From the NCBI GenBank assembly GCA_041583775.1, contig JBFHFF010000001.1:94676-158675 (forward strand): DNA of 64,000 nt, written 5' to 3'. Of this stretch, positions 9,305-64,000 are shown piece by piece (within the stretch, counting starts at the first letter, position 1; each line of letters starts with the position of its first letter). A model generated the notes under the pieces. That model was not told the origin of the DNA. It searched no databases and saw nothing but the letters and a program-made list of their open reading frames with translations. This DNA comes from Candidatus Moraniibacteriota bacterium. GTDB lineage: Bacteria > Patescibacteriota > Minisyncoccia > Moranbacterales > DUUL01. Both the position numbers and the translations under genes were made by a program.

Positions 9305-9315
9305 TTATTTTTTAA

Positions 9316-17226: not shown

Positions 17227-17246
17227 CAAAAAACCAGGAGGGTACC

Positions 17247-17423
17247 ATGACAAATTTAAATTCATCTCCAAGCAAAACAGTTCCTTTCAAAGAGACAAAA
17301 AAATGCTTATGTCAAAATTGTCAAAATGAGAAATTCGGAATCAAATTTCAAGAGACAATAGACGGGGCGATAATCTGCGAAGTATGTGGCAGAAAACTTG
17401 ATATTTCAAGTTACAGTAATTAA
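17247..17423 (+). CDS. Small zinc-ribbon protein (58 aa, CxCxxC...CxxC)
   Basis: SD AGGAGGG lies 5 nt upstream of ATG 17247. Cys pattern CLCQNC...CEVCG. The tracked ORF start at 17193 lies inside the upstream hairpin, so I prefer 17247. Terminator hairpin follows at 17446-17483. Confidence 0.45.
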   Translation: MTNLNSSPSKTVPFKETKKCLCQNCQNEKFGIKFQETIDGAIICEVCGRKLDISSYSN

Positions 17424-17445
17424 CAAATGCCAATAAAATTTTCAA

Positions 17446-17483
17446 GTGGGGGGATGATAAGATTATCTCCCCACCTTTTTATT
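17446..17483 (+). terminator. Intrinsic terminator after the zinc-ribbon ORF
   Basis: GC-rich stem of about 9-10 bp, gtggggggat/atctccccac, with one wobble. Followed by CTTTTTATTT. Confidence 0.55.
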
Positions 17484-17506
17484 TATCATTGCACTCAAAC
17501 ACCAAT

Positions 17507-18985
17507 TTATCTTTTCACTTGGCAAATTTTCATTCCCTGAAAATTACCTACTTCTTCCATTAACATTTCTTCACCCCAATCACAAGTCCAGTCAATGATA
17601 ATCATCCTGTTATCACTTTTAATTTCTGTTAGATTCGTTATCCTGTTATCATTTCCAACAACAACCCACTTACTAAAATCTTCCATTGGATTTGATCTGT
17701 GATAATATCTAACATTTTCTTCCCCGAAATAATATCTAGCAGATGTATAGCCGAATGGTCCATCCGCAACAACAATACTCTTATTAAAAACGGGATATTC
17801 TTTCATAAAATTTGAGACCTCTGTCCAACCTCCTTGAAATTGGATTGGCACCAATAGAAATATAGTTGCCACATAAATTCCAAGAGTTATTATCCAAGAC
17901 CACTTTGAACTAAAAACTAAAGTGATCATTCCTGCGAATAGGAGATAAATCAAAAGTGCAGATGGCATAAAATACCTTGACACATAGAGTTTTAAATTAA
18001 AGTGAGCAAGAATGATTAGAAACAAAAGAGTCCCCAATGAGATAACGGCCAATACAAAAACTTCTTTTTTTTGACGCCCTTTAAACCAAGTGTAACATAG
18101 CATTGCTATTATTAAAGTAAAAACCAATAAACCCATTGATGTTCCATCGAACAAGGGGATATCTTTATATAATTTAACAAATTCAACTGATTCAGGAACC
18201 CCCCCACTCCCTGGTTGATGACCGAAAAAGAAAATCTGCAAAGTTTTTGGTATATCACTAAGATTAGCTGGTGGAATCCAACCCAAATTGCCTTTCAGCA
18301 TATGTGGAATAAAATACCGAAGCCAACTGACAAAAAAAACTATTATGGTTCCCACTCCTATCCAGAAATTTTTATGTCCCAAAATTGCACTTATCCAGTT
18401 CTTTTTTTTAAAATTCTTTCCATAAAAAATATAACAAACATAAAAAATAATGAAAAAGAACAATGAAAGATAATGTGTCAGAAAAGACAAACCAGCAAAA
18501 ATTCCCCAAAAAATCCAGTCTCTTCTTTTGTCATTATCTAGCGCCCTCACGAAAAACCAAACAGACCAAAGAAAAAGAAAACCAAATAATGAATACATTC
18601 TAGCTTCTTGTGAATATTCAATTGCAAAAGGTGAAATAGCGGTTATAGCTGCAGCCAAAAGACCAGTTCTGGTATTAAACATTCTCTTTCCAATCCAATA
18701 GATTGAAATCACGGTTAAAATTCCAAAAAGAAATGAGAAAGAGCGAATTCCCTCTGGAGAATAACCAAATAAAGCGCTCCAGGGTTTAGCCAACCAATAA
18801 TATAATGGTGGATGAACATCTGCAAAAATCATCTGATTCATATCCCCCCAAGATGCTTTCAATAAAATTCCAGTAAAAGCTTCATCGTACCAAAAATCAC
18901 GCTGCCAAATAATTGGAGTGTACCTTAGAATCATCGCCAGAAATGTTAACAGTGTCAAAATAATGGCTGGAAAGAATTTTTTCAT
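17507..18985 (-). CDS. GT-C glycosyltransferase, family 39/83-like (PMT/ArnT-type)
   Basis: Polytopic membrane protein with the first-loop motif WYDEAFTG and the downstream DVHPPLYYWL typical of PMT/ArnT-type transferases. Confidence 0.65.
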   Translation of the reverse strand: MKKFFPAIILTLLTFLAMILRYTPIIWQRDFWYDEAFTGILLKASWGDMNQMIFADVHPPLYYWLAKPWSALFGYSPEGIRSFSFLFGILTVISIYWIGKRMFNTRTGLLAAAITAISPFAIEYSQEARMYSLFGFLFLWSVWFFVRALDNDKRRDWIFWGIFAGLSFLTHYLSLFFFIIFYVCYIFYGKNFKKKNWISAILGHKNFWIGVGTIIVFFVSWLRYFIPHMLKGNLGWIPPANLSDIPKTLQIFFFGHQPGSGGVPESVEFVKLYKDIPLFDGTSMGLLVFTLIIAMLCYTWFKGRQKKEVFVLAVISLGTLLFLIILAHFNLKLYVSRYFMPSALLIYLLFAGMITLVFSSKWSWIITLGIYVATIFLLVPIQFQGGWTEVSNFMKEYPVFNKSIVVADGPFGYTSARYYFGEENVRYYHRSNPMEDFSKWVVVGNDNRITNLTEIKSDNRMIIIDWTCDWGEEMLMEEVGNFQGMKICQVKR

Positions 18986-39911: not shown

Positions 39912-42900
39912 TTACTCTGTTAATTTATCAGGATCCTCATCTAATCTTCGTCCGATTTGTTTGATTTTGTCAACATAATCAATTTCCGTAATTACATGCG
40001 CAACTTCATCAAGTGTAGTTTCACCTCTTAGAATGTGCAATATTCCGTCTTGTCCCATTGTCAGCATTCCCTCTTCAATGGCTTTTTCTCTAATTTCAAT
40101 TGTAATTGGGTTTGTTGTTAAAAATTTCTGCATATTCCTACCGACTTCCAATACCTCCGTAATCGCAACTCTTCCTTTAAAGCCAAGATTGTGACATTTA
40201 TCACAGCCAATTGGCTCAAAAACTTTATTCGCCGTTTTAGGGATATCAACTTCTATTTTTGAAGAGATACTATCCAAAACCTCCTCTATAATTCTTTTCT
40301 CCTCAGGTTTCATATCTCGCTCCCTCTTACAATGAGGACAAAGCGTTCTAACTAATCTTTGCGCAACAAAACAATTAGTTCCCGAGGAAAGATCTGACAT
40401 AGAAACACCCATATTCAACAACCTTTGCACCGAACCAGCAGCACTATTAGTGTGTAATGTTGTTAAAATCAAGTGACCTGTTAAAGCAACTTTGTAAGCG
40501 GCGTTGGCACTTTCAGAATCTCTTATCTCTCCTACCATTATAATATCAGGATCCTGTCTTAAGATAACCCTCATAGCGCTCGAAAAAGTATATCCGTCAT
40601 CTTCTTTCACTTGTGTCTGTAAAATTCCTTCCATTTGATATTCAATTGGATCTTCTATTGTTATAACTTTGAGCTTTGGATCTTTAAGATAATTCAAAAG
40701 ACTATACAAAGTGGTTGTTTTACCACTGCCGGTTGGTCCTGTGTCCATAATAATCCCATTTGGCTTTGCAACATTTCTAAGTATCTTCTCAAGATTATAA
40801 GGATTCATATTTAACTCGGCTAATTCTGTCACCTGAACACTTTGACTCAAGAGCCTCATAACAATAACATCCCCAAAACCACCTAAGATTACAGATACTC
40901 TAACATCTATTGATTCCTCCCCTGACTCCCTTTCTTTATTTGAATAAACAATTTTAAACCTTCCATCTATCACCCCTTCTCTCTTGCCTGTCTTTACTCC
41001 CATTAGATTTTTAATCTCATTTAAAACAGTAAGATAATCATTCATTGATAGAAGAGCAACATCATGCAAAACTCCATCAATTCGATATCTGATTTTAAAT
41101 TTTTTCAATCCAGGCTCTACATGAATATCACCAGCACCTGTATACACAGCTCCAATCAAAACATATCTCACCAATTCCTTCGGGGGGAGGGTAGAAAATA
41201 ATTCTTCAAATTCTTCGTAATTGTCTTTCACTTTCAACATTTCCTCCAAGACATCATCTTTGATGAAAATTCCACGCGCCAAAGATTGAACAACTATTTT
41301 TTCATATAAATCAATTAGATATTCTCCTTTTCCAACAACGCGTTGCAATTCTTCAATCGAAGTGACTCCGGAAACTGACTTCAAAATTCCATCCTGTTCC
41401 AGAGTAATCATTCCGTTCTCTAGCGCTGCACTCCTAATTTCATCCTCTGGAGCCATTTTTTCAATCGCTTCCTTAATTTCATCTGTAATAACAAGTATCT
41501 CAAAAATACCAACGCGCCCTTTATAGCCAAGTCCATGACATTTAGCACAACCCTTTGGCTTCCAAAGTTTATCAATGTGCTTAGGAATCGAAATATCTGC
41601 CTTAGGAGAAATAAGCGCAAGCATTTTTTTTATCATATCAATAGTTTCGCTTGCTGGTACATATTCTTCCTTACAATGTGGACATAGACGCCTCAAAAGA
41701 CGCTGGGCAACAAAAGCATTTACTGCGGGCGCAATCAGGTTGGGCTTAACTCCAAGATCAACAAATCGTCCAATTACACCACTAGCACTATTTGCATGTG
41801 TTGTTGAAAGCACTAAATGTCCAGTCAAAGATGCGTGAATAGCAATCTCTGCAGTAGATTCATCTCTAATTTCTCCAACCAAAATTATATCTGGATCTTG
41901 ACGCATAATCGCTCTTAATCCATTTTCAAAAGTATACCCTTTTGAATCTTCAACTTGTGTCTGACTTACGCCAGGAACTTGATACTCAATTGGGTTTTCA
42001 ATACTAATAATTTTTTTATCAACAGAATTTAAACGGTTTATTAGAGCATAAAGAGTTGTAGTCTTTCCACTTCCCGTCGGTCCTGAGTTAATTATTGCAC
42101 CTTGTTTTTTCTCTGACTCATTTACAAGCCATTCATAGTTTAAACCTTCTAGTCCCATCTTACTTAAAGACAAATCGTTGATACTTTGACTAAGTAAACG
42201 GACTACAATGTTTTCACCAAAATTTCCTGGCAAAACTGAAACACGAAGATCCATCGCTGACTGACCCTCTCTTTCAACAGAAAAACGACCGTCTTGAGCA
42301 ATGTCACGCACATTTATCATCATTTTCGAAAGAACCTTTACCCTCGAAACAATCGTTGGATATATATGTATCGGAAATGATGCAACTGTCTGAAGAACGC
42401 CATCAATACGAAACCTTAAACGAACTTTTCCTGTCTGTTGAGGTTCGAAATGGATATCCGAAGATTGCAATTTAATTGCACCAGCAAGAATCATATTCAA
42501 AACCTTGGTTACTGGAAGATCTCGAATTTTTCTATCCATATCCAAAACTCCTTTTGTTTCATCCTCAAAAGCTGCTAATTCCTCCCCTGTCAAACCAGCT
42601 CTTAGTGTATCAAGAATTACACTCAGATTCTCCTTTTCATATTCTTGCCAAGCTCTTTCTATTGAAGACTGTGACACCACAAAAAGCTCAACCCTCATCC
42701 CATCATCCTCTAAATCAGTAATAAAATCTCTAACTTTTCCACTTTCAGGATTAGTGGTAACTATCTTAATTGATCTTTCTAATTTATGAACGACTGCAAT
42801 TCCCAAATTTTTTGCTGTTTCCTTATCAATAAATTTAACATTTTCTTGATCAATTGGAAAAATGTTTAAATCTAAGTAAGGAAGATGCATATCCTTTGCA

Positions 42901-43220
42901 AGTTTCGAAGCCTCTTCTTCCTCAGAATCCCTCCTTAAGTGGGTTAATGTTTTCTGAACTCCTCCTCTTCTAGCAAAATTAATAGCCTCTTTGTTCTTTT
43001 TCTTCAACTCAAGCAATCTAGCTCTTTCTTTTTCATTCTCTAATTCTCTTTCTATTCGTCTTTTTTCACGAGCCTCTAAATAGCGCTGTTCCCTTTCTTC
43101 TGGAGATTCGTCTTCTTCATAAACAACTCTTTCCACATCTTTATCTGCATTTGTTTTAACAGTTTGCGAGCTATCATCCACAACAGCATCTCCTTGATTT
43201 TGTTTTTCTTCTTCACTCAT
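39912..43220 (-). CDS. Tandem-fused double PilB/GspE-type (type II/IV secretion/pilus assembly) ATPase, 1102 aa
   Basis: Contains two complete units. Each unit has a T2SSE N-domain, Walker A (SGPTGSGKTTTLYAL / TGPTGSGKTTTLYSL), Asp box, Walker B (DPDIILVGEIRD / DPDIIMVGEIRD), His box (GHLVLSTTHANSA / GHLILTTLHTNSA) and a tetracysteine motif (CPHCKEEY...CAKCHGLGYKGR / CPHCKRERD...CDKCHNLGFKGR). Acidic N-terminal extension. Confidence 0.85.
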   Translation of the reverse strand: MSEEEKQNQGDAVVDDSSQTVKTNADKDVERVVYEEDESPEEREQRYLEAREKRRIERELENEKERARLLELKKKNKEAINFARRGGVQKTLTHLRRDSEEEEASKLAKDMHLPYLDLNIFPIDQENVKFIDKETAKNLGIAVVHKLERSIKIVTTNPESGKVRDFITDLEDDGMRVELFVVSQSSIERAWQEYEKENLSVILDTLRAGLTGEELAAFEDETKGVLDMDRKIRDLPVTKVLNMILAGAIKLQSSDIHFEPQQTGKVRLRFRIDGVLQTVASFPIHIYPTIVSRVKVLSKMMINVRDIAQDGRFSVEREGQSAMDLRVSVLPGNFGENIVVRLLSQSINDLSLSKMGLEGLNYEWLVNESEKKQGAIINSGPTGSGKTTTLYALINRLNSVDKKIISIENPIEYQVPGVSQTQVEDSKGYTFENGLRAIMRQDPDIILVGEIRDESTAEIAIHASLTGHLVLSTTHANSASGVIGRFVDLGVKPNLIAPAVNAFVAQRLLRRLCPHCKEEYVPASETIDMIKKMLALISPKADISIPKHIDKLWKPKGCAKCHGLGYKGRVGIFEILVITDEIKEAIEKMAPEDEIRSAALENGMITLEQDGILKSVSGVTSIEELQRVVGKGEYLIDLYEKIVVQSLARGIFIKDDVLEEMLKVKDNYEEFEELFSTLPPKELVRYVLIGAVYTGAGDIHVEPGLKKFKIRYRIDGVLHDVALLSMNDYLTVLNEIKNLMGVKTGKREGVIDGRFKIVYSNKERESGEESIDVRVSVILGGFGDVIVMRLLSQSVQVTELAELNMNPYNLEKILRNVAKPNGIIMDTGPTGSGKTTTLYSLLNYLKDPKLKVITIEDPIEYQMEGILQTQVKEDDGYTFSSAMRVILRQDPDIIMVGEIRDSESANAAYKVALTGHLILTTLHTNSAAGSVQRLLNMGVSMSDLSSGTNCFVAQRLVRTLCPHCKRERDMKPEEKRIIEEVLDSISSKIEVDIPKTANKVFEPIGCDKCHNLGFKGRVAITEVLEVGRNMQKFLTTNPITIEIREKAIEEGMLTMGQDGILHILRGETTLDEVAHVITEIDYVDKIKQIGRRLDEDPDKLTE

Positions 43221-45432: not shown

Positions 45433-46119
45433 ATGACAAATCCCAAAGATAAAGATTTAGAAAAAAAGATTTTAAAACAAGAATTAGCCGAGACAAACAA
45501 AAGACTATTGGCAACACTTGATTATGTTGTAACACTGGAGGAGAGGTGCGCCAGCTGGAAAAAAATAGCAAGAAAATTCCAGGAGATGGCGTTGATAGAC
45601 GGATTAACAGAGGTGCCAAATCGAAGATTCTTCGATATAACATTCGATGAAATCTTCCAGAAAAGGCTTGCTGGGACAGAAAAAATTGCAAGAAAAAGAA
45701 GCAGTGACAAAAATCAAGGACCACTAACATTACTGTTAGTAGATATAGATTTCTTCAAGCCGTATAATGATGTCTCTGGTCATCCAGCTGGAGACAAGGC
45801 TCTTCGTCAGGTAGCCTCAGCAATGAAGAGTTCTTTACGAAGCAATGACTTCTTAGCTAGATACGGCGGAGAAGAATTTGTCGTAATTCTTCCCAATACA
45901 AGCCATACTGAAGCTCAACTTGTGGCAGAGAGAGCAAGGAAAGCTGTCGAAAATCTTGGAATCCCACACCCGGGCTCTGGGACAAGCGAAGTTGTAACTG
46001 TCAGCATTGGGTTGGCCGCTCTCTCGGGAGAACTCTCCCCAGAAGAATTTCTGGAGGCGGCCGACAAAGCCTTATACAATGCCAAGAGGAAAGGGAGGAA
46101 TTGCGTTTATTACGATTAA
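45433..46119 (+). CDS. Diguanylate cyclase (GGDEF domain, intact GGEEF site) with N-terminal coiled coil
   Basis: SD AAGGAG lies 7 nt upstream. LLLVDIDFFKPYNDVSGHPAGDKALR and RYGGEEFVVILP (active-site GGEEF). Strong terminator at 46128-46170. Confidence 0.85.
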   Translation: MTNPKDKDLEKKILKQELAETNKRLLATLDYVVTLEERCASWKKIARKFQEMALIDGLTEVPNRRFFDITFDEIFQKRLAGTEKIARKRSSDKNQGPLTLLLVDIDFFKPYNDVSGHPAGDKALRQVASAMKSSLRSNDFLARYGGEEFVVILPNTSHTEAQLVAERARKAVENLGIPHPGSGTSEVVTVSIGLAALSGELSPEEFLEAADKALYNAKRKGRNCVYYD

Positions 46120-46338: not shown

Positions 46339-46995
46339 ATGCAAGAATTAGAGCAATTGAAAGAAATTTTTTACCAAAAAAAAGTTTCTGACGAAACAGT
46401 ATCATATGTAAAAGCGCTTGAAAAAGCATTGCAGATGGCTGTTGCTAGAACAAAAAGATTGGAAGAAGACAAAAAAAAATTACTAACAAGTTTTAGTTCT
46501 TTCAGAGTAACAACCCCTTTTGATTTAATATCTGGGGCTCACACTGCTACTTTCTTTGAAGATGAAATAAAGAAAAGAGTATTGGAAAGCAAGGAGAGTA
46601 AAAGCCCCTTATCTCTAATCATCATTGAAGTGAATCGCTTCAGGGACTACTGGAATACTTCCAAATTTTCAGAGGGAGATTCACTGTTATACGAAGTTGC
46701 TTCTAATCTACAAGGCTTCTTAGGGCCCACAAGCTCACTCTCAAAAACAGATAATGGGCAGTTCTCTGTTTTGATTCCCAAAACAAAAAAGGAAGCTATA
46801 AACTTAGCATTAGGGCTTCAAAAAAGCCTTACATCTCTCAAGATTCCACACTGCGGCAACACAGAGACAATTTTTACTTTCGGTGTTGCCACATTGGGAA
46901 CACAAGAATCTGTAAAAGCTTTTTTGATCCGGAGCAAAAGGTATTTGCGATTGTCTAAAAAAGAAAACTGTTATATGTATTGTGGTGGCGATTAA
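46339..46995 (+). CDS. Degenerate GGDEF-domain protein (GGDEF replaced by DNGQF), probably non-catalytic
   Basis: SD GGAGG lies 6 nt upstream. SLIIIEVNRFRDYWNTSKFSEGDSLLYEVA aligns with the GGDEF N-terminal half. The active-site position reads DNGQFSVLIP. N-terminal coiled coil as in its neighbour. Two terminators follow (47003-47044, 47061-47092). Confidence 0.6.
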   Translation: MQELEQLKEIFYQKKVSDETVSYVKALEKALQMAVARTKRLEEDKKKLLTSFSSFRVTTPFDLISGAHTATFFEDEIKKRVLESKESKSPLSLIIIEVNRFRDYWNTSKFSEGDSLLYEVASNLQGFLGPTSSLSKTDNGQFSVLIPKTKKEAINLALGLQKSLTSLKIPHCGNTETIFTFGVATLGTQESVKAFLIRSKRYLRLSKKENCYMYCGGD

Positions 46996-53957: not shown

Positions 53958-53973
53958 TATTTTTCTTTCAAAA

Positions 53974-54003
53974 AACCACCATTTATTTTGGTGGTTTTTT
54001 TAT
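53974..54003. terminator. Bidirectional intrinsic terminator (aaccacc/ggtggtt)
   Basis: Hairpin flanked by A6 and T8 between convergent genes. Confidence 0.55.
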
Positions 54004-54022: not shown

Positions 54023-55264
54023 TTACTCATACCTAAGCGCATCAAGAGCATGAATTTTTGCTGCTCGTTGAGCTGGCATAATTCCAGTAACTAGACCAAG
54101 AAAAAGAATAAAAGAAACAATAGCGGCAACAAAATAATAAGGTATATAAACAAAATTGGAAAGCTCAACTCCGTTTTTATGTGCTAAATATACGAGGGCC
54201 TTATTTACTACCATCGCCAACCCATACCCCCCAAACAATCCCAACATTCCGCCTGCCACACTAATTAAAATAGCCTCAAAAATAAACATTTTAAAGATAT
54301 CTTCTCGTTTAGTTCCCAACGCTTTTAGAATACCGACCTCCTTCGTTCTTTGCAAAAGAGAAATACTTAAAGTATTCAACATTCCCATGGCAGAGATAGA
54401 CATTATGATTGTGCCTAACACTATCATAATAACTCTAATTACCACAAAAAAACTATTAATATCTTCGATGATTTCATTGACACTTTCCGTTAAAAATCCA
54501 AGCTGTTGAACTGCGAGTTCAATATTTGCCATTTCATCTACATTTTCAACTAAAATTTTCCCTTTTTGCGCAGAATCAACTCCAAACTCTGAGCTCAGAT
54601 AAGTAAAGGGCACAATAACAATTGAGGCGGATGATTCAGTAATTCCAATAATTTCAACTTCATTACCAGTAACTGTTGTTTCTTCGCTTACCGAAGAAGA
54701 AACCTCTTTTGAAAGAACCACTCCGAGTTTAACTTTTTTGCCTATCAATTCTTTGGGACTTTTAAAACCAAGGATGTTCGCTATTTGCATTGAAGCGATT
54801 ATGCCGTTTTCATTATCAGTGAATTTCCTGTCACCTTCTTCAAAAGATGTTTTTGCTAACTCTAAATAATCCTTATTTTCTCCATATATAACAGCATCAA
54901 TCTGAGAATCATTATATTCGAGTTTACCACCCGTGCTAACCTGTCTTGCCACACCCTTCACTCCTGCTATGTTTTCAATTTTAGTAACAAAATCACTATT
55001 TAGTGTAACAAAATTATCCAAGTTACCGTTATTTATATCCATCACATCGCGCGGGTTGTTTTTTGTCACCTCATCGATTATCATCCCTTGAACACCGAAT
55101 CCTATGCATAACAAAAATGTTATTATACCAATTCCCAAAGAAACTCCTCCTACTGTAAGAAAGGATCTAGTTTTATTTGCACGAAGATTTCTCCATCCAA
55201 GAAAAATAATCATATGCATTTTGATCTTTGAATATTTTTCTTTTTTCCAAAAAGCTAATTTCAT
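54023..55264 (-). CDS. ABC transporter permease, MacB/FtsX-like (N-terminal TM, large periplasmic domain, C-terminal FtsX 3-TM bundle)
   Basis: Topology is TM1, then a periplasmic domain of about 220 aa, then three C-terminal TMs. The start overlaps the stop of the ATPase gene by 4 bp (ATGA). Confidence 0.8.
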   Translation of the reverse strand: MKLAFWKKEKYSKIKMHMIIFLGWRNLRANKTRSFLTVGGVSLGIGIITFLLCIGFGVQGMIIDEVTKNNPRDVMDINNGNLDNFVTLNSDFVTKIENIAGVKGVARQVSTGGKLEYNDSQIDAVIYGENKDYLELAKTSFEEGDRKFTDNENGIIASMQIANILGFKSPKELIGKKVKLGVVLSKEVSSSVSEETTVTGNEVEIIGITESSASIVIVPFTYLSSEFGVDSAQKGKILVENVDEMANIELAVQQLGFLTESVNEIIEDINSFFVVIRVIMIVLGTIIMSISAMGMLNTLSISLLQRTKEVGILKALGTKREDIFKMFIFEAILISVAGGMLGLFGGYGLAMVVNKALVYLAHKNGVELSNFVYIPYYFVAAIVSFILFLGLVTGIMPAQRAAKIHALDALRYE

Positions 55265-56097
55265 TTTTTATTGAGTTTTTTATTTTCCTGCGTAATTATT
55301 TCCGCTACACGACCATCCAACATCTTAAAAACCTTACTTGCATAATGATATTGATCAGGATTGTGTGTAACCATTAGTATTGTTATTTCAAATTTTTTAT
55401 TCAACTGAGAAATAAGATCCATTAATTCAACTCCTGATTTTTGATCAAGATTTCCAGTCGGCTCATCTGCAATAATAAACCAGGGATTGAGGAGAAGTGA
55501 TCTCGCTAAAGCAACTCTCTGTTGTTGACCTCCAGAAAGATCAAAGGGTCTATGTTTTGACCATTCACTCATACCAACAAGCTCCAGCATTTGTGCTGCC
55601 TTTTCAAGCCCTTCATGAAATTTTAAACCACCTATAATTGAAGGAACTGCAACATTCTCCAAAACACTCAATGACTTAAGCCAAAAAGCTTGCTGTGGAA
55701 TAAATCCCACACTTTTATTTCGAAAATCAGCTCTCCAATTTTTCGTATGTTTCCAAATATCGGTACCTTTAATATAAACACTTCCTTGAGATGGTGCCTC
55801 CAAACCATAAACAATGTGTAATAAAGTTGATTTTCCGCACCCAGAAGGACCAACTAGCATCGCAAAATCACCCTGCTTGATTTTAAGGTCTACCCCATTA
55901 AGAACAGAAATTTCATTCTCTCCAATAACAAACTCTTTTTTGATATCACTAACAACAACAACACCTTCTTTTTCAGCGTACAATTCAACTGTTGCTTTAT
56001 CGTTATTACGATGACTTAAGCTTTTCAATATGTCGGCTTCTTCCCTTAAGTCACTTTCTTTTTTTTCTTTAATTATTGCCATAGTTTTGATATCCAA
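55261..56097 (-). CDS. ABC transporter ATP-binding protein (MacB/LolD-type)
   Basis: Walker A VGPSGCGKSTLL, signature LSGGQQQRVALARSL, Walker B FIIADEPTGNLD and H-loop. The start region overlaps the 3' end of the upstream giant gene. Confidence 0.9.
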   Translation of the reverse strand: MDIKTMAIIKEKKESDLREEADILKSLSHRNNDKATVELYAEKEGVVVVSDIKKEFVIGENEISVLNGVDLKIKQGDFAMLVGPSGCGKSTLLHIVYGLEAPSQGSVYIKGTDIWKHTKNWRADFRNKSVGFIPQQAFWLKSLSVLENVAVPSIIGGLKFHEGLEKAAQMLELVGMSEWSKHRPFDLSGGQQQRVALARSLLLNPWFIIADEPTGNLDQKSGVELMDLISQLNKKFEITILMVTHNPDQYHYASKVFKMLDGRVAEIITQENKKLNKK

Positions 56098-59000
56098 CTA
56101 AATTTATCAGCAAAAGTTCCTACAACTATTTCCGTTGCATTTTCTTTTGAATCTTCAACAATGACCGTCACAGCTTTTGTTGAAGTTTCATTTCCTGATT
56201 CATCGAATGTTTTAACGATATAACTATAAACCTGTCCTGGATCAACAGGAATAGTTACTAGATGATATGTATTTAAAGGGTCTTCTGCCGAACTCTGTTC
56301 AAAATTAGCCAACACTATTCCAGGGCTATAAAAAACTTTTGCAGTTGTAATTTCATCTGTTTCGACTTTGATATACAAATTTGCACGAGCATCCTTTCCT
56401 CTTCCAATCACCCTACCAACTGCACGATTAGAAAGAATCCCTGGAGGCCTACTATCAGCCTTGGTAATGATTTTTGTATCTAAAGTTGTTGCAGAAACTC
56501 CATCTTCAGCTGTTCCTCCAACATTGATTTCATATTCAACTGATGGCGCTAACCCCTCTAGTTCAATTGAATGTTCAGTTACATATTCGTTATCCAAAAA
56601 ATTATGAAGGGAAGCCTCACTTGTCATTTTAAAATTAATTAAAGTATTTGTCGGTAAAGTTGTGTTATATTTTACTATCACAGTCGGGATATCAACATTC
56701 TCCTTATTTTCAACAATAAGATCAGAAGAAATTGGTTGCTCTAAAGTTCTGAAATTATATCTATCCGAACTAAACTCATTCAAATCATCATCTATGGCAT
56801 CAATTTGAAAACTATAATCTGTTGTACTATCAAGCCCTGTTAATTTTATCATATGGCTGCTTCCCGAGGAAGTTTCCTCTATTAGCTCAGATAAGCTACC
56901 GCCCTTACCATAATGCAAAGTACATTTCGCACTGGTATTAGTTGTCCAAAAAATTGTTGCTACATCAAGACCTACATCAGACGCCTCGACTTCTGAAATT
57001 GTTGGAGGTGGCAATGTTTCAAAAGTTAAAATGTCACTCATTCCTATATTTCCATCTGGGTCTATGTATTTTGCTCTGTAATAATATTTTGAGCCAGCAT
57101 CCAAACCAGTGAGTTCAACAATATGATCTGTTAGAGAATCAACTTGTCCATTCGTTTTTCCAAGACTCATTGATTTTCCATATTCCACAAAAGAGCTGGC
57201 AAAACGATTAGTTCCCCATTTTATTGTAGCTTCATAAGCCTGAACTGTGTGAGTTGGTTCTGTTACTAATGTAGGAGGAGTTGTGTATCTTCCTGTAGGA
57301 ATTATATTCACTGTAGTTGATGCAATGGAAATATTATTAGTACTATCCTTTGATTTTACATAATAATAATAAGTTCTACTTTCAAGTTCCGTGTCAACAT
57401 AAGCACTTCCAGATGTTGATGCCACTTCTTTAAATGTTTCGTCGTCATCACTTCTGTAGATAATATAACCATCAAAATTGTCTTCATTGATTGAGACGGG
57501 AGGGGACCATTTAAGTGCTATTGAATATTCTTGATTTTCTCTATCAGAAGTATCAAAAATTTGAATATTAACTGGCGCTCCAGGGGCTGATGTGTCAGCT
57601 TCGAAATCTACATAAGCATATAAGTCATAATCAATATTTTCAGCCTCATCCATTGCGCATACATAAAAACGATTCAATCCTTTCTGTGTTGCAAAAGGTC
57701 CAGGACCAGCAGCTCTAACGGCTGTATTTATTATATTATATGCATTTGGTAAAGCGTTAACTGAATATACATATTTTATTTTATTAGCATCTCCCATATA
57801 AGACTCTGGTTGATCCCATTGAAAAGCAAAAGAATTTATTGTTGATGTTTCCGGAGTTACAGTCAAATTCCTCGGCGGAGAAGGAGCACTTGAACTGAAA
57901 TAATATTCCTGATTTATAGCTGCCGAAACATTTCCAGCCGCATCAACAACTCGTAAATGAAACCAATTTTTTCCAGATTGATAAGCAGCAACGGTATGTT
58001 CGTCATTTGGAAGAGTAAGTGTTGTTGCCATCGGATCATCGATGTCATACCAGACATCTTTCTCGTCTCCATCAGTTTGATATTGAAACTTAGCCACGCC
58101 AGAATGTGCATCGGTTACATCTGACTCCCAAGTAAAAGTATAATTGTCACTAGCTGTATAACCAGCTGGGTTAACTAATATATTTGTTGGATTTGTTGGA
58201 GAGGTATTATCGAAACGATAAGTGAAGGCCGCATATGTTGAAGCGGGTACCATTTCAGCATCATCAATCGCCTTAATCCTTAAATAATAATCCTCGCCTG
58301 AACTTAAATTTTCAGCCGTAAATGTATTTTCACTTTGTAAATTTCCTTCCAAATATGGATCTGCCGAACTATCAGTTCCAAAATAAACATAATACCCAAC
58401 AACACCAGAACCACCTGAGCCATCACTTGCACCATTAACCTCTTCGGCAGCCGGCCAAACAAAGTACGGTGCAATATTTCCATACCAAGCATTGCTTGTT
58501 AATATTACCCCCGAAGAACTATTGTTATAACCAACAACTGAAGTAGGATTTGTTGGAGCAATAGAATCTTGATAATAATTAATTTCGATATCTTCTAATA
58601 AAGGAGATTTTATTCTATCAGAAGATGTAAATTCTATCCTAATTTGAATATATCTATTTTCACCAGAAAGAATATTAAAACGATGCTCATTTGGACTAGG
58701 AATTTGTTCGTTTGTAACTCGCTCCCAACTTGACCATTCAACTTCATCACTTGATGTTCTGGTATAAATAACAGCACTTGTATTGTTTGGAAGTATGTAT
58801 CTCGCAGTTAAATTAGCCCACTTATATACATCAATGAGATCAATTGATTCAGAAGTATAGTTTCCTGTTTTTTTAAAACCAGTATCATTTTCGGCTGAGC
58901 CAACCACATAACTATATAAACCATTTCTATATGAATCAGATTCACCTCTTGCCGTCAACCAAATTCTATCATTTGAGAAAACGGCATCTCCTTCTCGATA

Positions 59001-62000
59001 AACTCTTGATGGGACATCTTCAAGCTCTTCCCAAGAATCAGCAGTAATGTTATATCTAAAATTTTCTCTAGTATTATTTCCCCTCATTGCATGCAAGTAT
59101 CCATCTCTTGTATCAACCAATGAACCACCATAGTTTATAGCAGCTGGAGCACTAGTTCTTGTCTCCCAAGAGCCAGAATTCACATCATATCTCCACATAG
59201 TAGAATAATTACCACCTCTGGTCCAATAAATATATGGCACATCACCAACTTCTTTATAAAGAATTTTTCCCCCATAATTATTTGTGAGTCCAGAAGTTGT
59301 CGGAAGTGCCGAAGACCAGCGGCTGCCAGCCGTAGCCTGCGTATCATATCTCCACCAATTAGAGCTTGCTCCTCTAGTAAGGTATATATATCTAGCGCCA
59401 TCGTATGTCATAGAGGACCCAGAGCTTGTCTGTAGAGGAATCGGATCTGTAGTAATTGTCTCCCAGGTATTCGTAGCAACTTCATATCTCATAAAATAGT
59501 TGTTGCTTCCGTCAATAGCTCTTGATCTTGTTCCGGTACCAGTTGAAAGATATATCGCGTTCTCATCTTCGTTGTATGCCATTGCTGTACCAGACCAAAG
59601 ACCAACAGGGGTATCTGCTAATTTCAGAAACTCACCAGAATTAGTATCATATTTTCCGAAATCACTACTGTAATAACCTCTTGTTATATATAAACTACCC
59701 GCACCATCTTCAACAAGTTCGGAGCCATAATAATAGTCAAAATATGAATTAGTACTATCCAAAATGGATGGTCCAAAAAAACCTCTTTGTGGAATTTCCC
59801 AAGAATTTTCTTCGATATTAAAACGATAAAACAAAGTTGAACCATTAGCTCTAAGAACATAAACATATCCATCAACAACTTTCATAGTAGTTCCGTAGGC
59901 AATACTATTTGGAATTTTAGGAAGTTGCATCCAAGAATCAGTTGTTACATCATACTTCATAAAGTTATCTCTCCAATTTCCACTTAACATGAAAATTGAA
60001 TTTGTTTCATCATCATAAGAAACGCAACCACCGTAATAAACACCGATTGGAGCTTTAGCTAAAGGAACCCAAGAATTTCCATCTTCTCCAGTTTCAATAT
60101 CATCGTCGATAATGTATTTTGAAAAATAAGGATAGTAATTACCCTGTAAGGCATATATGTAATTCTCTCCGTCGAAAACTGCATCAGCTCCTGCATAAAC
60201 CCTTTGTCCATCAGACTCATTTGGATTTCCAAATTCCGCATTAGATAAAGTTGTCCAACGATTGTCTTGAGTGTCATAACGATAAAAAACATCATCATTC
60301 CCTGGAAACGCATAAATATACCTTCCTCCGTCCGAAGAAAGTGAGCTACCATAAGTAAAATTCTTTGGTGCACTTGAAACTGATTCCCAATTATCATTTA
60401 CGATATCATACCTCCAAAAAGTTGAGGTATTTGTGCCACGAGATGCAAATAAATAACCCTCTGGTCCTTCTGCTAAAGTTCCTCCATAATAAACGGCCTC
60501 TGGTGCATCCTTAAGCGAAGACCAAGTATCAGTTTCTATGTCATAAACATAAAAACTTTTTTGATTATAACCTCTCAATGAATATAATTTACCATCGACA
60601 TGAACTAACTCAGCTCCTCGCTGAATTGTTCCTGGGGCATTTGACAAAAGTGTCTGTTGCCAAAAGCCATCGACTGCTTCCAGTTGTAATTCATCAGGCT
60701 CTGCTGAAGTTGAAATGTTCTCCACTTCACCCTCTTCAAAATCTGCCTGACTTGTTTGTATCTCAGTTTGAAAAGGAGAAACTCCATCATAGCTATAAAC
60801 AAAAGCCTCCCAAACTTCATCAGTTATATTCCCGTCGTTATCTTTCGTCTTCAAAAGTAAATAATAATCTCCTGTTGTCATCGCAATATTAGCAGAATAA
60901 CTAGTTGCTGTTTGAAAAACACCCTCAGTTTCTGGATCAGCAGAACTATCAGGTCCAAAATATACAAAATACCCTTCTATTTGAGATCCCGCATCTGATG
61001 CCTCTGTCCAAGAGAAAAAAGGGTGTGTATGTTTATACTCAGTGCTACTGACAAGAGATTCTCCTCCTATTCTTGCTGATGATGCTGAAATTGTTGTGGG
61101 ATTGATAGGGTCAACATCCTCACTATTATATGAAATTGTGATGTCATCAATAGTTGGAGTTTTTTCTCCATCAGAACTTACAAGGGTTACTTTCACTTGT
61201 AAATATCTTTTTTTAGGAGATTGGATATCAGTTCCTGAAATAGCCGTCCAAACAGACCAAGTAATGGCATCATCAGAACTTCTAGTTTGATATACAACAG
61301 AAGTATTAATTGGTATATCCTCGCTTGCTGTTAACGATATCCAGGAGTCAACATATCCAAGGTCCAATACTTCACTTGTGAAAGTTCCATTTAGAGTAAA
61401 GTTTGTTGTTCCTGCGGTATAACTCCAAAAATCAGTAATATCAGTTCCTGGTGAAGCATAAAAAGAATTGTTTCCAGTATAAGCAATTGATGCTCCTGCC
61501 CAAGTTCCTCGACCATAAGAATATTTTTGATTAAATGGCAATTCCCTCCAAGAGTCAGTTGCTATTGTATATTCCCAGGTACTGTTTTGATAATTTCCTG
61601 CAAGCGCTAAAATCTTTCCATTTTCATCAAATGTTAAATCTGTACCATAATATTGAGCAAAAGGTGTTTTTTCCAATTTACTCCAAGAATTAGTAGCTGT
61701 ATCATATTTCAAAAACGCAGTCTCTCCATCACCCACAGTGGTATAAAGATTAGTACCATCAGAAATTAAACGAGCACCAACATACGGATAATAATAAAAA
61801 TCATCAGTAGCAACATCAGCCATTTGAGTCCACGAATCGCCAGCAATATCATACCGATAAAAACTTCTCTGGGCATTACCCCTCAAAACATAAATAAAAC
61901 CATCAGAGGCATTATAAACAGCATTTGCACCTTGCCCCAAAGTTCCTGGCGCTGCCGACATTGAACTCCAAGAATCACTAGCTATGTCGTAACGGTAAAA

Positions 62001-63545
62001 ATTACCAGTGGTATTATCGCCTCTTGGAATATAAATATAACCATTATGATAAGTACCTTTTGTATCATAATTCATATTAAGCGGCAAAGAGCTCATCACG
62101 CTCCAACTATTAGCTGAGACATCGTATCGATAAAAAGCGTTATTATTGTCACCTTTAATACCATACAAATAATTACCAGCACCAACAATTCCATTCCAAA
62201 TCAAGCCACCACCCGTATTGAAACTACTTGGGGCATCTGCTGGCCCAACCCAATCACCACTAGATCCCTCTGCTGGGTCAAACTTCCAAAAAGTGTATGA
62301 TCCATTCCCTCTAATTACAAAAAATTTATCGTTATCAGTATCATATGCTATAGAAGAATAATTCGTGGTTAAGGGAGTATCTTCTAATGTGTCCCAAGAA
62401 TCAGTATCAATACAATATCTATAAAATGTATTTGTATTACCAGAGCGCAAAAAATAAACATATCCATCTCGATAAACACCTTTCTTTTCACCATTAAAAG
62501 AAAGGGGCGAATCTGCCAAAGCATTCCATGAATTATTATCAATGTCATATTCCCAAAGAGTTTTTTGATTATAACCCCGAAGAACATACATTTTCCTGTT
62601 ATCCCCATAGACTAATCCACCTCCTGTGTAAATATTGGCAGGCGCTGGGGCAAGATTATACCAACTATTTTCAGAAATATCAAACTTCCAAAAATCTGTA
62701 GAATTTTGTCCGCGTGTTATAAAAAAATCTGCTCCATCAAATTCGATTCCAGCACCCTGATAAACAGAGTCTAAAAGGTTTGGAAGTTTTTCCCATTCAT
62801 CAGTTTCAATATCATAAGAATAAAACTCCTTTGAATAACCCCCAAAAATAAAATATAACTTATCAACTCCATTATATGCAACATCGGCACCATAAAAAGC
62901 TGGCTGTGGCATATCGATAGTTTTAACCCACTCATTAAGATCAATGTTGTAGACATATAAATCTTTGTCGCTATAACCTCTCACTAAATATAAATAATTT
63001 CCTACGACAACAGAAGTAGATCCATATGCAATAGTGTCATATGCCGGAGCCCAAGAACGAGCAGTCCAAGTACCACTTGATGATAATTGAATTGAGTCAG
63101 TTTTGCTTGTAGTTGAAATATTAAAAATTTCTCCACTCTCCCATTCCATTTGAGATGAAATCGTTTTTGATTGTGGTGCTGCAGAAATAAGCGGACTAAC
63201 CAAAAAAATAACAGCTATAAGCAAGGAGGCTAATGTTGAATTATAGATAACAACTTTAATTGTGCGAAAAATAAATACAAAAATACCCCCAATAATATCT
63301 TTAAATTTTGAAGCAACCTTCAAAACGCTAAATTGCCAACCCAAGACACTTCTATTTCTTTTCTTATTCTCAGTTTGTTCCAAAAATTCATCTAGCTTAT
63401 TGATTGAATATTGCTTGTTAATTTGGTTTTTTTTAACTCTTTTTTTCCCAAGCAAAAAACCAAGAATATTCACCTTCTTGTTTCTTTTAAAAATACCTCC
63501 ACTTATTATTTTATTTTTTTTATTATTTATATTTTTTTGTTTCAT
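56073..63545 (-). CDS. Giant (2490 aa) cell-surface protein: N-terminal TM anchor, two blocks of Kelch/beta-propeller repeats, FN3-like modules, C-terminal FN3/PAP-N-like repeat pair
   Basis: Single ORF. Dozens of repeats of the form Y.YDI..D.W..L / Y.GG (for example YSYDIETDEWEKL and YRYDIASDSWSSM). PTNPT-containing FN3-like linkers. C-terminal paired domains of about 90 aa (…KYYYRAKYIDPDGNIG… / …DYSFQIDAIDDDLNEF…). Confidence 0.8.
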   Translation of the reverse strand: MKQKNINNKKNKIISGGIFKRNKKVNILGFLLGKKRVKKNQINKQYSINKLDEFLEQTENKKRNRSVLGWQFSVLKVASKFKDIIGGIFVFIFRTIKVVIYNSTLASLLIAVIFLVSPLISAAPQSKTISSQMEWESGEIFNISTTSKTDSIQLSSSGTWTARSWAPAYDTIAYGSTSVVVGNYLYLVRGYSDKDLYVYNIDLNEWVKTIDMPQPAFYGADVAYNGVDKLYFIFGGYSKEFYSYDIETDEWEKLPNLLDSVYQGAGIEFDGADFFITRGQNSTDFWKFDISENSWYNLAPAPANIYTGGGLVYGDNRKMYVLRGYNQKTLWEYDIDNNSWNALADSPLSFNGEKKGVYRDGYVYFLRSGNTNTFYRYCIDTDSWDTLEDTPLTTNYSSIAYDTDNDKFFVIRGNGSYTFWKFDPAEGSSGDWVGPADAPSSFNTGGGLIWNGIVGAGNYLYGIKGDNNNAFYRYDVSANSWSVMSSLPLNMNYDTKGTYHNGYIYIPRGDNTTGNFYRYDIASDSWSSMSAAPGTLGQGANAVYNASDGFIYVLRGNAQRSFYRYDIAGDSWTQMADVATDDFYYYPYVGARLISDGTNLYTTVGDGETAFLKYDTATNSWSKLEKTPFAQYYGTDLTFDENGKILALAGNYQNSTWEYTIATDSWRELPFNQKYSYGRGTWAGASIAYTGNNSFYASPGTDITDFWSYTAGTTNFTLNGTFTSEVLDLGYVDSWISLTASEDIPINTSVVYQTRSSDDAITWSVWTAISGTDIQSPKKRYLQVKVTLVSSDGEKTPTIDDITISYNSEDVDPINPTTISASSARIGGESLVSSTEYKHTHPFFSWTEASDAGSQIEGYFVYFGPDSSADPETEGVFQTATSYSANIAMTTGDYYLLLKTKDNDGNITDEVWEAFVYSYDGVSPFQTEIQTSQADFEEGEVENISTSAEPDELQLEAVDGFWQQTLLSNAPGTIQRGAELVHVDGKLYSLRGYNQKSFYVYDIETDTWSSLKDAPEAVYYGGTLAEGPEGYLFASRGTNTSTFWRYDIVNDNWESVSSAPKNFTYGSSLSSDGGRYIYAFPGNDDVFYRYDTQDNRWTTLSNAEFGNPNESDGQRVYAGADAVFDGENYIYALQGNYYPYFSKYIIDDDIETGEDGNSWVPLAKAPIGVYYGGCVSYDDETNSIFMLSGNWRDNFMKYDVTTDSWMQLPKIPNSIAYGTTMKVVDGYVYVLRANGSTLFYRFNIEENSWEIPQRGFFGPSILDSTNSYFDYYYGSELVEDGAGSLYITRGYYSSDFGKYDTNSGEFLKLADTPVGLWSGTAMAYNEDENAIYLSTGTGTRSRAIDGSNNYFMRYEVATNTWETITTDPIPLQTSSGSSMTYDGARYIYLTRGASSNWWRYDTQATAGSRWSSALPTTSGLTNNYGGKILYKEVGDVPYIYWTRGGNYSTMWRYDVNSGSWETRTSAPAAINYGGSLVDTRDGYLHAMRGNNTRENFRYNITADSWEELEDVPSRVYREGDAVFSNDRIWLTARGESDSYRNGLYSYVVGSAENDTGFKKTGNYTSESIDLIDVYKWANLTARYILPNNTSAVIYTRTSSDEVEWSSWERVTNEQIPSPNEHRFNILSGENRYIQIRIEFTSSDRIKSPLLEDIEINYYQDSIAPTNPTSVVGYNNSSSGVILTSNAWYGNIAPYFVWPAAEEVNGASDGSGGSGVVGYYVYFGTDSSADPYLEGNLQSENTFTAENLSSGEDYYLRIKAIDDAEMVPASTYAAFTYRFDNTSPTNPTNILVNPAGYTASDNYTFTWESDVTDAHSGVAKFQYQTDGDEKDVWYDIDDPMATTLTLPNDEHTVAAYQSGKNWFHLRVVDAAGNVSAAINQEYYFSSSAPSPPRNLTVTPETSTINSFAFQWDQPESYMGDANKIKYVYSVNALPNAYNIINTAVRAAGPGPFATQKGLNRFYVCAMDEAENIDYDLYAYVDFEADTSAPGAPVNIQIFDTSDRENQEYSIALKWSPPVSINEDNFDGYIIYRSDDDETFKEVASTSGSAYVDTELESRTYYYYVKSKDSTNNISIASTTVNIIPTGRYTTPPTLVTEPTHTVQAYEATIKWGTNRFASSFVEYGKSMSLGKTNGQVDSLTDHIVELTGLDAGSKYYYRAKYIDPDGNIGMSDILTFETLPPPTISEVEASDVGLDVATIFWTTNTSAKCTLHYGKGGSLSELIEETSSGSSHMIKLTGLDSTTDYSFQIDAIDDDLNEFSSDRYNFRTLEQPISSDLIVENKENVDIPTVIVKYNTTLPTNTLINFKMTSEASLHNFLDNEYVTEHSIELEGLAPSVEYEINVGGTAEDGVSATTLDTKIITKADSRPPGILSNRAVGRVIGRGKDARANLYIKVETDEITTAKVFYSPGIVLANFEQSSAEDPLNTYHLVTIPVDPGQVYSYIVKTFDESGNETSTKAVTVIVEDSKENATEIVVGTFADKFSWISKLWQ

Positions 63546-63686
63546 TCTTGTTGAGGTCGCCCTTGCAAAAACAAAATTTTTAACACTTTAAACGGGATTA
63601 GTTCAACTAAGCGCTAGTCTCGTTATGCTGTTTTTCTGAAAATAAACTTTTCAGGTTGACTATCAGAAAAAATTTTATTTTTTATT

Positions 63687-63968
63687 TCAAAACTCACCTA
63701 TCACCTCTTTATTCGCAAAATCAATCTTTGATATATCAGTCTCCTCAATAGACTCACTTTTTAAATAAATTTTCCTGCCTTTTTTAAGCCTTCCTTTTTT
63801 CTCCTCTCCTAGAAATATATCCGTACTTTCTTCAAAAACCAATAGTTCTGGATCAGTCTGAAATCCTTTTTCCACACAAAAAACAGAAGATGGTGTTTCG
63901 ATTCGATAGTTTTCCACCTCAACATTGTATTTCCTGGAACTTAAAAATCCCACTTTATTATAAATCAA
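63687..63968 (-). CDS. Hypothetical protein (93 aa)
   Basis: ORF lies upstream of the giant gene. No motif. Weak support. Confidence 0.3.
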   Translation of the reverse strand: MIYNKVGFLSSRKYNVEVENYRIETPSSVFCVEKGFQTDPELLVFEESTDIFLGEEKKGRLKKGRKIYLKSESIEETDISKIDFANKEVIGEF

Positions 63969-64000
63969 ACCATTTAAAAGTGATATATTGATTTGATAGA

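Follow-up and report, generated by a model that had tools for sequence, protein, structure and literature searches.

A giant Kelch/FN3 surface protein of a Candidatus Moraniibacteriota bacterium and its conserved linkage to a MacB-type ABC transporter pair

A stretch of 64,000 nucleotides (nt) from a Candidatus Moraniibacteriota bacterium, a member of the candidate phyla radiation (contig JBFHFF010000001.1, positions 94,676 to 158,675 of the forward strand), referred to below as the window and used as the reference for all coordinates, contains three minus-strand genes arranged end to end. They code for a giant protein with Kelch and FN3 domains, for an ATP-binding cassette (ABC) ATPase and for a permease (Table 1). 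The stop codon of the giant gene, read from the sequence as TAA at 56075-56073, lies within the reading frame of the ATPase. In the list of open reading frames (ORFs) this frame starts with TTG at 56097 and encodes 278 amino acids (aa), whereas the public gene call starts at the in-frame ATG at 56082 (273 aa). The overlap with the giant gene is 25 nt with the former start and 10 nt with the latter. At the second junction the stop codon of the ATPase gene and the start codon of the permease gene share the sequence ATGA at 55264-55261, a 4-nt overlap. The initial annotation, which was made from the letters of the sequence, described these genes as an overlapping three-gene unit with the ATPase starting at 56097. 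Both overlaps were found, and only the start has to be shifted to 56082, the position used by public gene calls.

The space between the genes is too small to accommodate an internal promoter or terminator, and no gap separates them. The possibility that a mis-called ATPase start conceals such signals can thus be set aside, and the three genes, joined by overlaps of 10 and 4 nt and followed by a hairpin, make up one tightly packed unit. The hairpin lies in the interval that separates the permease gene from a convergent phosphorylase-like gene, and it has the appearance of a terminator serving both. It had been proposed to be a bidirectional terminator spanning 53974-54003; its A-run and T-run flanks agree with this role, and its limits are 53970 and 54000. 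A promoter scan of the window gave 41 matches against 45 expected from shuffled sequence and lent no support to any promoter. Scans of the window for Rfam families and tRNA genes found nothing. The G+C content of the window is 29-38%.

Table 1. Coordinates of the three genes, of the flanking signals and of the parts of the giant protein.
Feature	Position	Strand	Description and basis
Giant surface protein gene	56073..63545	-	2490 aa, stop included; ORF list, Pfam, identical public gene call
ABC ATPase gene	55261..56082	-	273 aa from ATG 56082; ABC_tran; motifs intact
MacB-type (type VII ABC) permease gene	54023..55264	-	413 aa; MacB_PCD and FtsX
Shared intrinsic-terminator-like hairpin	53970..54000	.	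12 pairs, A-run and T-run flanks; terminator scan and sequence
Intergenic stretch upstream of the giant gene	63546..63686	-	141 nt, after the FecR-domain gene; probable promoter region of the operon
N-terminal region, aa 1-123	63177..63545	-	K/R-rich tail and hydrophobic segment; hydropathy scan of 31 orthologues
Module 1, aa 125-935	60741..63173	-	~12 Kelch blades, beta-sandwich, FN3-like domain; AlphaFold2, Pfam
Module 2, aa 936-1775	58221..60740	-	second propeller block, beta-sandwich, FN3; Pfam and module comparison
Stalk, aa 1776-2465	56151..58220	-	~seven FN3-like beta-sandwich domains; AlphaFold2, Foldseek, Pfam
Conserved C-terminal module, aa 2270-2490	56076..56738	-	two beta-sandwiches and terminal helix; phmmer
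C-terminal amphipathic helix, aa ~2466-2490, NATEIVVGTFADKFSWISKLWQ	56076..56150	-	AlphaFold2 and conservation; proposed docking/recognition element

Conservation of this gene order was assessed in one genome per species with a permease alignment as the query, and the ORFs of the 48 Moranbacteria-type loci obtained were compared with the proteins of the window. In every one of the 45 loci that had upstream DNA, an orthologue of the giant gene was found directly before the ATPase and permease genes. The giant orthologues were 42-82% identical, with alignments extending from residue ~1-130 to residue 2488-2490, and in 30 of the 45 loci the giant was a single ORF of 2444-2698 aa. The end of the giant gene overlapped the ATPase reading frame by 10-31 nt in 25 loci and was separated from it by 6-103 nt in the other 20, the start codons of the ATPase and permease genes in the related loci being approximate. 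The remaining neighbours in the window (genes for a phosphorylase, an AIR-synthase-related protein, UvrD, a FecR-domain protein and a SPOUT protein) were present in the two closest relatives only.

A sister clade of giants with 38-40% identity and lengths of ~2370-2400 aa was also found. Two contigs of this clade (L054 and L055) carry the giant gene followed by an ABC_tran gene and a MacB_PCD/FtsX gene in surroundings that are otherwise unrelated; the ATPases are 39-44% and the permeases ~31% identical to those of the window. Homologues of the permease and of the giant are annotated as belonging to Candidatus Moranbacteria/Moraniibacteriota, the Parcubacteria group or the Patescibacteria group. 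Conservation of the linkage in relatives, which the initial annotation had put forward as a check of its proposal, was thus observed while the other neighbours differed. A functional link between the giant and the ABC genes appears very probable.

Several features of individual loci were recorded in this survey. In L010, L019, L025, L006 and L041 the giant is split into two or more ORFs, for which an assembly error, a frameshift or pseudogenisation are possible explanations. In L016 the ATPase gene of the cassette is separated from the permease gene by a 349-aa membrane-anchored ORF (8777-9826) with serine-hydrolase/beta-lactamase-like motifs (SLFK, SDN). The sister-clade permease encoded at 15963-18107 of L054 has 714 aa, and its extracytoplasmic part is ~300 residues larger than that of the 413-aa permease of the window. 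The FecR-domain protein encoded just upstream of the giant (218 aa; 63687-64000 on the minus strand, continuing in the longer contig L001 at 922-1578) gave a weak, non-significant match to the LapA retention module (E = 0.005). Its gene was considered as a fourth component of the unit and was rejected, being kept in the two closest relatives only.

The ATPase matched the Pfam family ABC_tran (1.4e-32), and its motifs are intact: Walker A GPSGCGKST, signature LSGGQQQR, Walker B IIADEPT and the H-loop TH. The permease matched FtsX (PF02687) at aa 282-405 (7.2e-19, 68.5 bits against a cut-off of 25.5) and MacB_PCD at aa 34-255 (3e-15, 57.5 bits against 27). It is laid out as a first transmembrane (TM) segment, an extracytoplasmic MacB_PCD domain of ~220 aa and an FtsX domain with three TM segments. 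Among solved structures the best relative is YtrF of Bacillus subtilis (9o9x, 8.5e-27), in which residues 11-435 align with residues 24-413 of the permease. It is followed by MacB (5nik, 1.1e-22, MacB residues 258-646; 5gko), Spr0695 (5xu1) and the YknZ ectodomain (5f9q). The solved structures of LolF, LolC and LolE matched much more weakly than those of YtrF and MacB.

Four known types of ABC system were compared with the pair and rejected. For LolCDE the scores were 71.3 bits against an NCBIfam cut-off of 362.45 (lolCE) and 218.7 against 307.75 (LolD). For FtsEX, the FtsX models for Gram-negative bacteria, Gram-positive bacteria and actinobacteria gave 23-29 bits against 225-255 and FtsE gave 170 against 264.85; the ectodomain is MacB_PCD and not FtsX_ECD. 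For MacAB, NF007826 gave 83.7 bits against 966, and no MacA/HlyD-type adaptor was present among the genes of L001, L054 and L055 or among conserved neighbours. Type I secretion does not agree with an FtsX/MacB_PCD permease or with the N-terminal anchor of the giant, and RTX or ABC_membrane matches were absent in Pfam. The best NCBIfam matches of the ATPase (LolD, YbbA, DarD and FtsE) were all below cut-off. Since all named NCBIfam families scored far below their cut-offs, the pair is classed, as judged from its sequence, as a MacB-type (type VII) system and not as Lol, FtsEX or MacB proper. The earlier designation of the genes as a MacB/FtsX-type pair agrees with the two Pfam domains of the permease and with its closest solved relatives, and the concern that the pair might be a Lol transporter that happens to be adjacent is answered by the sub-threshold Lol scores.

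The giant protein starts with a K/R-rich tail (25 K+R against 5 D+E), predicted to be cytoplasmic, after which comes one hydrophobic segment, at aa ~101-123. The same layout was present in all 31 orthologues scanned, in which the N-terminal ~120 residues were poorly conserved and the length of the tail varied. In orthologues with an intact N-terminus the TM segment mostly ends 42-52 aa ahead of the conserved ectodomain, and a small-residue motif comes after it. An N-in signal-anchor and a signal peptide with a long n-region would both fit this segment. From aa ~125 to 2490 the 31 full-length orthologues are collinear with ~0% alignment gaps, and the frequency of the majority residue in 30-residue windows is 0.5-0.83, with the peak in the C-terminal third, in the stalk. 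Such strong constraint and collinearity of the ectodomain would be as expected for a part of a machine.

The Kelch/FN3 content that had been recognised from the letters of the sequence was confirmed by the domain models of Pfam: Kelch_6 (3e-41; 138.5 bits against a gathering threshold of 25.3), Kelch_1 (8e-32; 108.9 against 20.1), fn3 (5e-15), other Kelch propeller models and the FN3-like Pur_ac_phosph_N. An AlphaFold2 model of module 1 (mafe374d0c272, aa 125-935, 43 homologues) had a mean predicted local distance difference test score (pLDDT) of 90.5. It consists of ~12 four-stranded blades, a flanking beta-sandwich built from strands before and after the blades, and then an FN3-like domain. 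The ~12-blade block probably represents two propellers in tandem. In module 2, Kelch_1, Kelch_6 and Beta-prop_ATRN-LZTR1 matched at aa 977-1382. In a targeted comparison the sandwich and FN3 parts of the two modules were 35% identical (E = 4e-38). Module 2 is a duplicate of module 1 that has diverged; the duplication surfaced only in this comparison, and no repeats were found when the complete giant was aligned with itself by BLAST. The two propeller blocks of the initial annotation are therefore both present, each with ~12 blades and probably a tandem propeller, whereas its dozens of Y.YD...D.W motifs were reduced to 15 matches of the strict pattern Y.YD...W.

For the stalk a model of aa 1780-2490 (m8e6bd63b4832, mean pLDDT 88.1) shows ~seven FN3-like sandwiches and then a C-terminal helix. 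The C-terminal FN3 pair described before has to be replaced by this array, ~seven beta-sandwich domains at aa ~1780-2465 followed by the helix. The top Foldseek matches of module 1 in the PDB were the double-propeller proteins BT4663 sensor, LRP6 and PorZ, with TM-scores of 0.15-0.35. The stalk matched generic FN3/Ig arrays, in agreement with the fn3 and Pur_ac_phosph_N matches in Pfam. Since the TM-scores are low and the matches are generic propeller and FN3-array proteins, the fold searches assign no function. No hydrolase domain was found in the giant. A function as NanM-type sialic acid mutarotase was rejected: TIGR03548 matched at 2.7e-19 with 69.5 bits, below its cut-off of 243.2, and the JGI name 'N-acetylneuraminic acid mutarotase' reflects shared Kelch repeats only.

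The feature of the giant that proved to be of general occurrence is its C-terminus. In all 31 orthologues the last 25 residues are kept to the very end, with the consensus NATE[IV][IV]..TF...F[GS]W[IM]S.L... When the last 221 residues were compared by phmmer with 1.84 billion representative proteins, 1561 clusters were found at E<=1e-3 and 492 at E<=1e-10. The strong matches were mostly the extreme C-terminus of large proteins. Among the best 148 relatives, 87 had an F-x-W/F motif within the last 30 residues, and these proteins ranged from 277 to 5134 aa. The common ending of distant relatives is a sandwich with PG.VY.F.V.S.D..GN...S...T.LTP and then a helix with S[IV][IFL][QD][IL]I[IL].N[FL]E.TFGW[VL].K. 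The hydrophobic moment of the helix is ~0.45 in the general family and 0.30 in the giant of the window. A hidden Markov model of this C-terminal domain (CTD) matched the giant at aa ~2258-2488 (2.4e-61). The heads of the proteins bearing it differ, being long FN3/Pur_ac_phosph_N arrays, DUF2341 with Laminin_G_3, or Kelch. Organism names were available for three distant members: Parcubacteria, Kerfeldbacteria and 'Patescibacteria group'. No model in Pfam or NCBIfam covers the element. We refer to it by the uncurated name FGW-helix C-terminal module, meaning two FN3-like sandwiches and an amphipathic helix with ...F-G/S-W... no further than ~15 residues from the stop codon. By sequence similarity, the C-terminal ~220 aa of the giant are a modular element shared with many large proteins of Patescibacteria.

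Association of this module with the transporter genes was examined in metagenome contigs, which were scanned with a degenerate DNA pattern composed by hand to represent the helix motif. The pattern samples modules with N[FL][EQ]..FGW and yielded at least 120 loci, whose ORFs were searched with ATPase and permease profiles. All 120 listed matches were in frame and terminal in their ORF; they lay 3-14 codons ahead of the stop codon and had the sandwich motif before them, and none of them was a chance match. Downstream DNA of at least 2 kb was available for 64 of the listed loci, and 40 of these had an ABC ATPase gene starting less than 600 nt from the stop codon and then a gene for a ~400-aa MacB/FtsX permease. 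In 9 further loci of the 64 one or both ABC genes lay just past the distance limits; both were clearly present in L074, L089, L101, L141 and L177. A profile search with the CTD alignment returned short fragments only, two of which (L056 and L057) were looked up. In L056 the CTD gene, ABC_tran, MacB_PCD and FtsX follow each other in that order. MacB-type pairs are, by our own estimate, rare in such small genomes, and on this estimate the association between module and transporter is far above chance. The permeases at the pattern loci were only 24-33% identical to that of the window. Since the association persists with diverged permeases and differing heads, the element linked to the transporter is likely to be the C-terminal module and not the Kelch head.

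In the abundant family of ~500-aa module proteins a larger operon was seen (L116, 1-14723; also L063, L087, L089 and L069). It starts with a DUF2341 protein of at least 2000 aa and a ~510-aa protein with FN3 domains and the module. Next come an ABC ATPase of 440 aa, extended by ~200 aa at its C-terminus, a MacB/FtsX permease of 402 aa, a secreted protein of ~615 aa that is rich in Ser/Thr/Cys and has no Pfam match, a ~320-aa protein and a Big_6/DUF4215/Dockerin_1 protein of ~370 aa. Members of the ~615-aa family were present in 48 of the 120 listed loci. This family has no similarity to the giant, so that an origin of the giant by fusion of these separate genes finds no support. In L056 a weak Cohesin match (2022-2570) and a Dockerin_1 match (16969-17667) lie near the module gene and the ABC pair. 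These matches are hints of a cohesin-dockerin type assembly of surface proteins around such cassettes.

In type VII ABC proteins, as described for MacB, cytoplasmic hydrolysis of ATP drives movement of an extracytoplasmic domain, and mechanotransmission without a transmembrane substrate channel is a property of this family (PMC5985334). In the case of FtsEX the transporter controls a docked extracytoplasmic protein partner (PMC7668044, PMC6355983, PMC10694151, PMC6705773). We suggest that the giant is handled in a comparable way. Its N-terminal signal-anchor would insert it through the membrane, so that outside the single membrane two heads made of tandem Kelch propellers would be carried on an FN3-like rod, the tip of which would be formed by two FN3-like sandwiches and the amphipathic helix (...F-G/S-W...). 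With this topology, N-terminus in and the rest out, the C-terminal module and the MacB_PCD domain would be on the same, outer side of the membrane. The ATPase and the MacB-type permease would form a type VII ABC machine whose large extracytoplasmic domain binds the C-terminal module. ATP hydrolysis in the cytoplasm would be transmitted via the permease to the docked giant, which would be held, repositioned or conformationally switched. The action would resemble that of FtsEX on a protein partner; pumping of small molecules is not proposed. The contact between helix module and permease, the direction of the force and its purpose are what we infer. That the helix module docks on the permease ectodomain and that the ATPase cycle holds or switches the giant seems to us nearly an even matter. 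Docking combined with mechanotransmission as the actual mechanism is put forward somewhat more tentatively.

Several observations weigh against docking. The helix at aa 2470-2488 was modelled with moderate confidence (AlphaFold2 pLDDT ~62-65). The partners of FtsX dock via N-terminal coiled coils, whereas the giant is proposed to use a C-terminal helix, and for the closest solved relative, YtrF, neither function nor partner is established (PMC12772383). Taxonomy was assigned for few of the metagenome loci. Furthermore, 14 of the 64 listed loci had unrelated genes downstream and no ABC genes in the available DNA, and in L057 the CTD gene has no ABC pair on record. It follows that adjacency of the module gene and the ABC pair is frequent and not obligatory. 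The orphan module genes would fit one machine serving several module-bearing proteins. The module genes without ABC pair are those of L064, L079, L080, L086, L093, L097, L104, L106, L111, L114, L137, L164, L170 and L171; further large secreted proteins are encoded downstream of some of them.

Orphan genes of this kind are also what would be expected of extra substrates if the module were a sorting signal. According to this explanation the giant is inserted by a Sec-dependent route, after which the ABC machine extracts its anchor or hands the protein over to the wall or surface layer, a function analogous to that of LolCDE, which pulls lipoproteins out of the membrane, and one that would explain how one transporter can serve several CTD proteins. 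The position of the module at the extreme C-terminus of many different ectodomains resembles that of known sorting signals. The poorly conserved anchor region with its small-residue motif after the TM segment makes cleavage or release conceivable, and the permease and the ATPase are distantly similar to Lol proteins. However, the Lol cut-offs are far from being reached (71 against 362 bits for lolCE, 219 against 308 for LolD), and no conserved carrier or receptor gene was found in the neighbourhood of the cassettes. In the general family the helix has an acidic polar face, which is not suggestive of a membrane-inserted anchor that has to be extracted, and cleavage of the module is unsupported. 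We regard sorting or extraction as rather unlikely, though it is the main rival of docking.

The initial annotation put forward a candidate host-attachment apparatus. In this reading the giant would be an adhesin and the FtsX-type pair a motor by which the appendage is powered or retracted on the host cell. An episymbiotic way of life is widely inferred for Patescibacteria, for whose largest proteins exposure on the surface and adhesion-type domains are predicted (PMC13059738, PMC11809585). The Kelch propellers are related to sugar-binding mutarotases (TIGR03548, 2.7e-19, below cut-off), the double-propeller glycan binders BT4663 and PorZ are among the fold matches, and the linkage to the ATPase is conserved. 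Against this, the ectodomain is nearly free of insertions and deletions and 45-58% identical across the lineage, unlike typical fast-evolving adhesins. Such constraint would suit a component with a structural or mechanical role, or a protein recognising a conserved ligand, better than an adhesin that tracks its host. The element associated with the ABC genes is the C-terminal module and not the propeller head, and the fold matches are low (TM-scores 0.15-0.35). An adhesin driven in this manner appears improbable. Still more doubtful is a merely coincidental or regulatory co-location with an ordinary efflux, peptide-resistance or housekeeping envelope transporter that shares the operon: homologues are annotated as 'ABC-type antimicrobial peptide transport system permease', the MacB family includes efflux pumps (PMC5985334) and some CTD genes have no adjacent pair, but the adjacency outlives the loss of other synteny in 45 species, in the sister clade and in dozens of unrelated metagenome loci, overlaps of the reading frames are frequent, and neither a gene for a membrane-fusion protein nor a regulator gene, as typically found with MacAB or BceAB-type pumps, is conserved alongside.

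Docking of the C-terminal module on the MacB-type pair can also be considered on the scale of the phylum. A large part of bacterial diversity belongs to Patescibacteria, which for the most part live in attachment to other cells. To our knowledge, almost nothing is known of how their surface is built and operated, and their giant surface proteins are as a rule recorded only as 'possible adhesins'. The association described here joins a recognisable module to a dedicated ATP-driven MacB-type partner, and it recurs from FN3 proteins of 500 residues to giants of 5000 residues. It is conceivable, though more speculative than docking in the Moranbacteria giant, that across Patescibacteria the module serves as a signal for sorting or docking and is recognised by a dedicated MacB-type machine that mounts, releases or actuates large surface proteins. 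The four-propeller giant of Moranbacteria would then be one cargo and the DUF2341/cohesin-dockerin clusters elsewhere another, and ultrasmall bacteria with a single membrane would have an unrecognised route for handling large surface proteins. Should the link prove to be physical, mechanotransmission as known from FtsEX, MacB and Lol would gain a new class of partners, the module would provide a sequence signature for the surface proteome of Patescibacteria, and the Walker B motif and the helix would be simple genetic targets in the few cultivable members. The published work that was found is general in kind, stating that the largest proteins of Patescibacteria are exposed on the surface and have FN3 or DUF2341 domains (PMC13059738, PMC11809585). 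In the literature searched, coverage of which was limited so that absence is no proof, neither the C-terminal module nor its linkage to a MacB-type ABC pair is mentioned.

Elsewhere the window contains genes for a type IV pilus-type ATPase, GGDEF proteins and glycosyltransferases. The minus-strand gene at 39912-43220 encodes a protein of 1102 aa in which an MshEN domain is combined with two regions of T2SSE (PilB-type secretion ATPase); the protein has the appearance of a tandem or fused pilus-assembly ATPase. On the plus strand two adjacent GGDEF (diguanylate cyclase) genes are located at 45433-46119 and 46339-46995, in a reduced genome of the Patescibacteria type. Another large minus-strand ORF (9316-14343, 1675 aa) gave no Pfam match at E<=0.001 and does not have the C-terminal FGW-helix module.

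Comparison with known systems shows partial likeness to several of them. The type IX secretion system (T9SS) CTD, LPXTG/sortase and PEP-CTERM/exosortase resemble the present case in that a short C-terminal element is found on many unrelated large surface proteins, partly beside the processing machine and partly dispersed. They differ in the motif, in that the element here is an FN3-like pair with an amphipathic helix and without TM segment or basic tail, and in that the machine is an ABC system. In type I secretion (LapA, SiiE) a giant repetitive surface protein with a C-terminal recognition element is likewise encoded beside an ABC gene. That pathway, however, uses an HlyB-type channel exporter with an adaptor and an outer-membrane duct, and its substrates have no N-terminal signal, whereas the giant of the window has an N-terminal signal-anchor, implying Sec-dependent export. 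If the module were a sorting signal, the parallel would be with LolCDE/LolDF, type VII ABC machines acting on many different membrane-anchored envelope proteins, which they recognise by a terminal feature and move at the expense of ATP. The Lol system differs by its N-terminal lipid anchor, by LolA/LolB and by the outer membrane; here the feature is a C-terminal helix module, and conserved partner genes are absent.

MacAB-TolC, Spr0693-0695 and YknXYZ share the MacB fold with the permease, that is TM1, the periplasmic core domain and the three-TM bundle of FtsX. In contrast to MacAB, the cassette of the window has no gene for a MacA/HlyD-type adaptor, its ATPase is a separate polypeptide, and a small-molecule substrate is unsupported. 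YtrEF (9o9x/9o9y) includes the closest solved relative of the permease and is, like the pair described here, a MacB-type pair of a monoderm without membrane-fusion protein. The identity is low, and YtrEF is encoded in the ytrGABCDEF operon, together with another ABC system and a repressor of the GntR type, and not beside a surface protein. FtsEX with its partners (EnvC, PcsB, CwlO, RipC) is also a type VII pair with a separate ATPase and an FtsX-fold permease that has an extracytoplasmic domain, and it acts by mechanotransmission on an extracytoplasmic partner that docks via a helical element, as proposed here for the giant. The permease ectodomain of the window differs in being MacB_PCD (Porter/Sabre-type) and not the FtsX extracytoplasmic domain, and the proposed partner, a giant FN3/Kelch protein that is anchored at its N-terminus and has a helix at its C-terminus, is not a coiled-coil hydrolase activator. 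By analogy, the system of the window would be most like FtsEX with its partners in the way it works, while by sequence it is closest to YtrEF.

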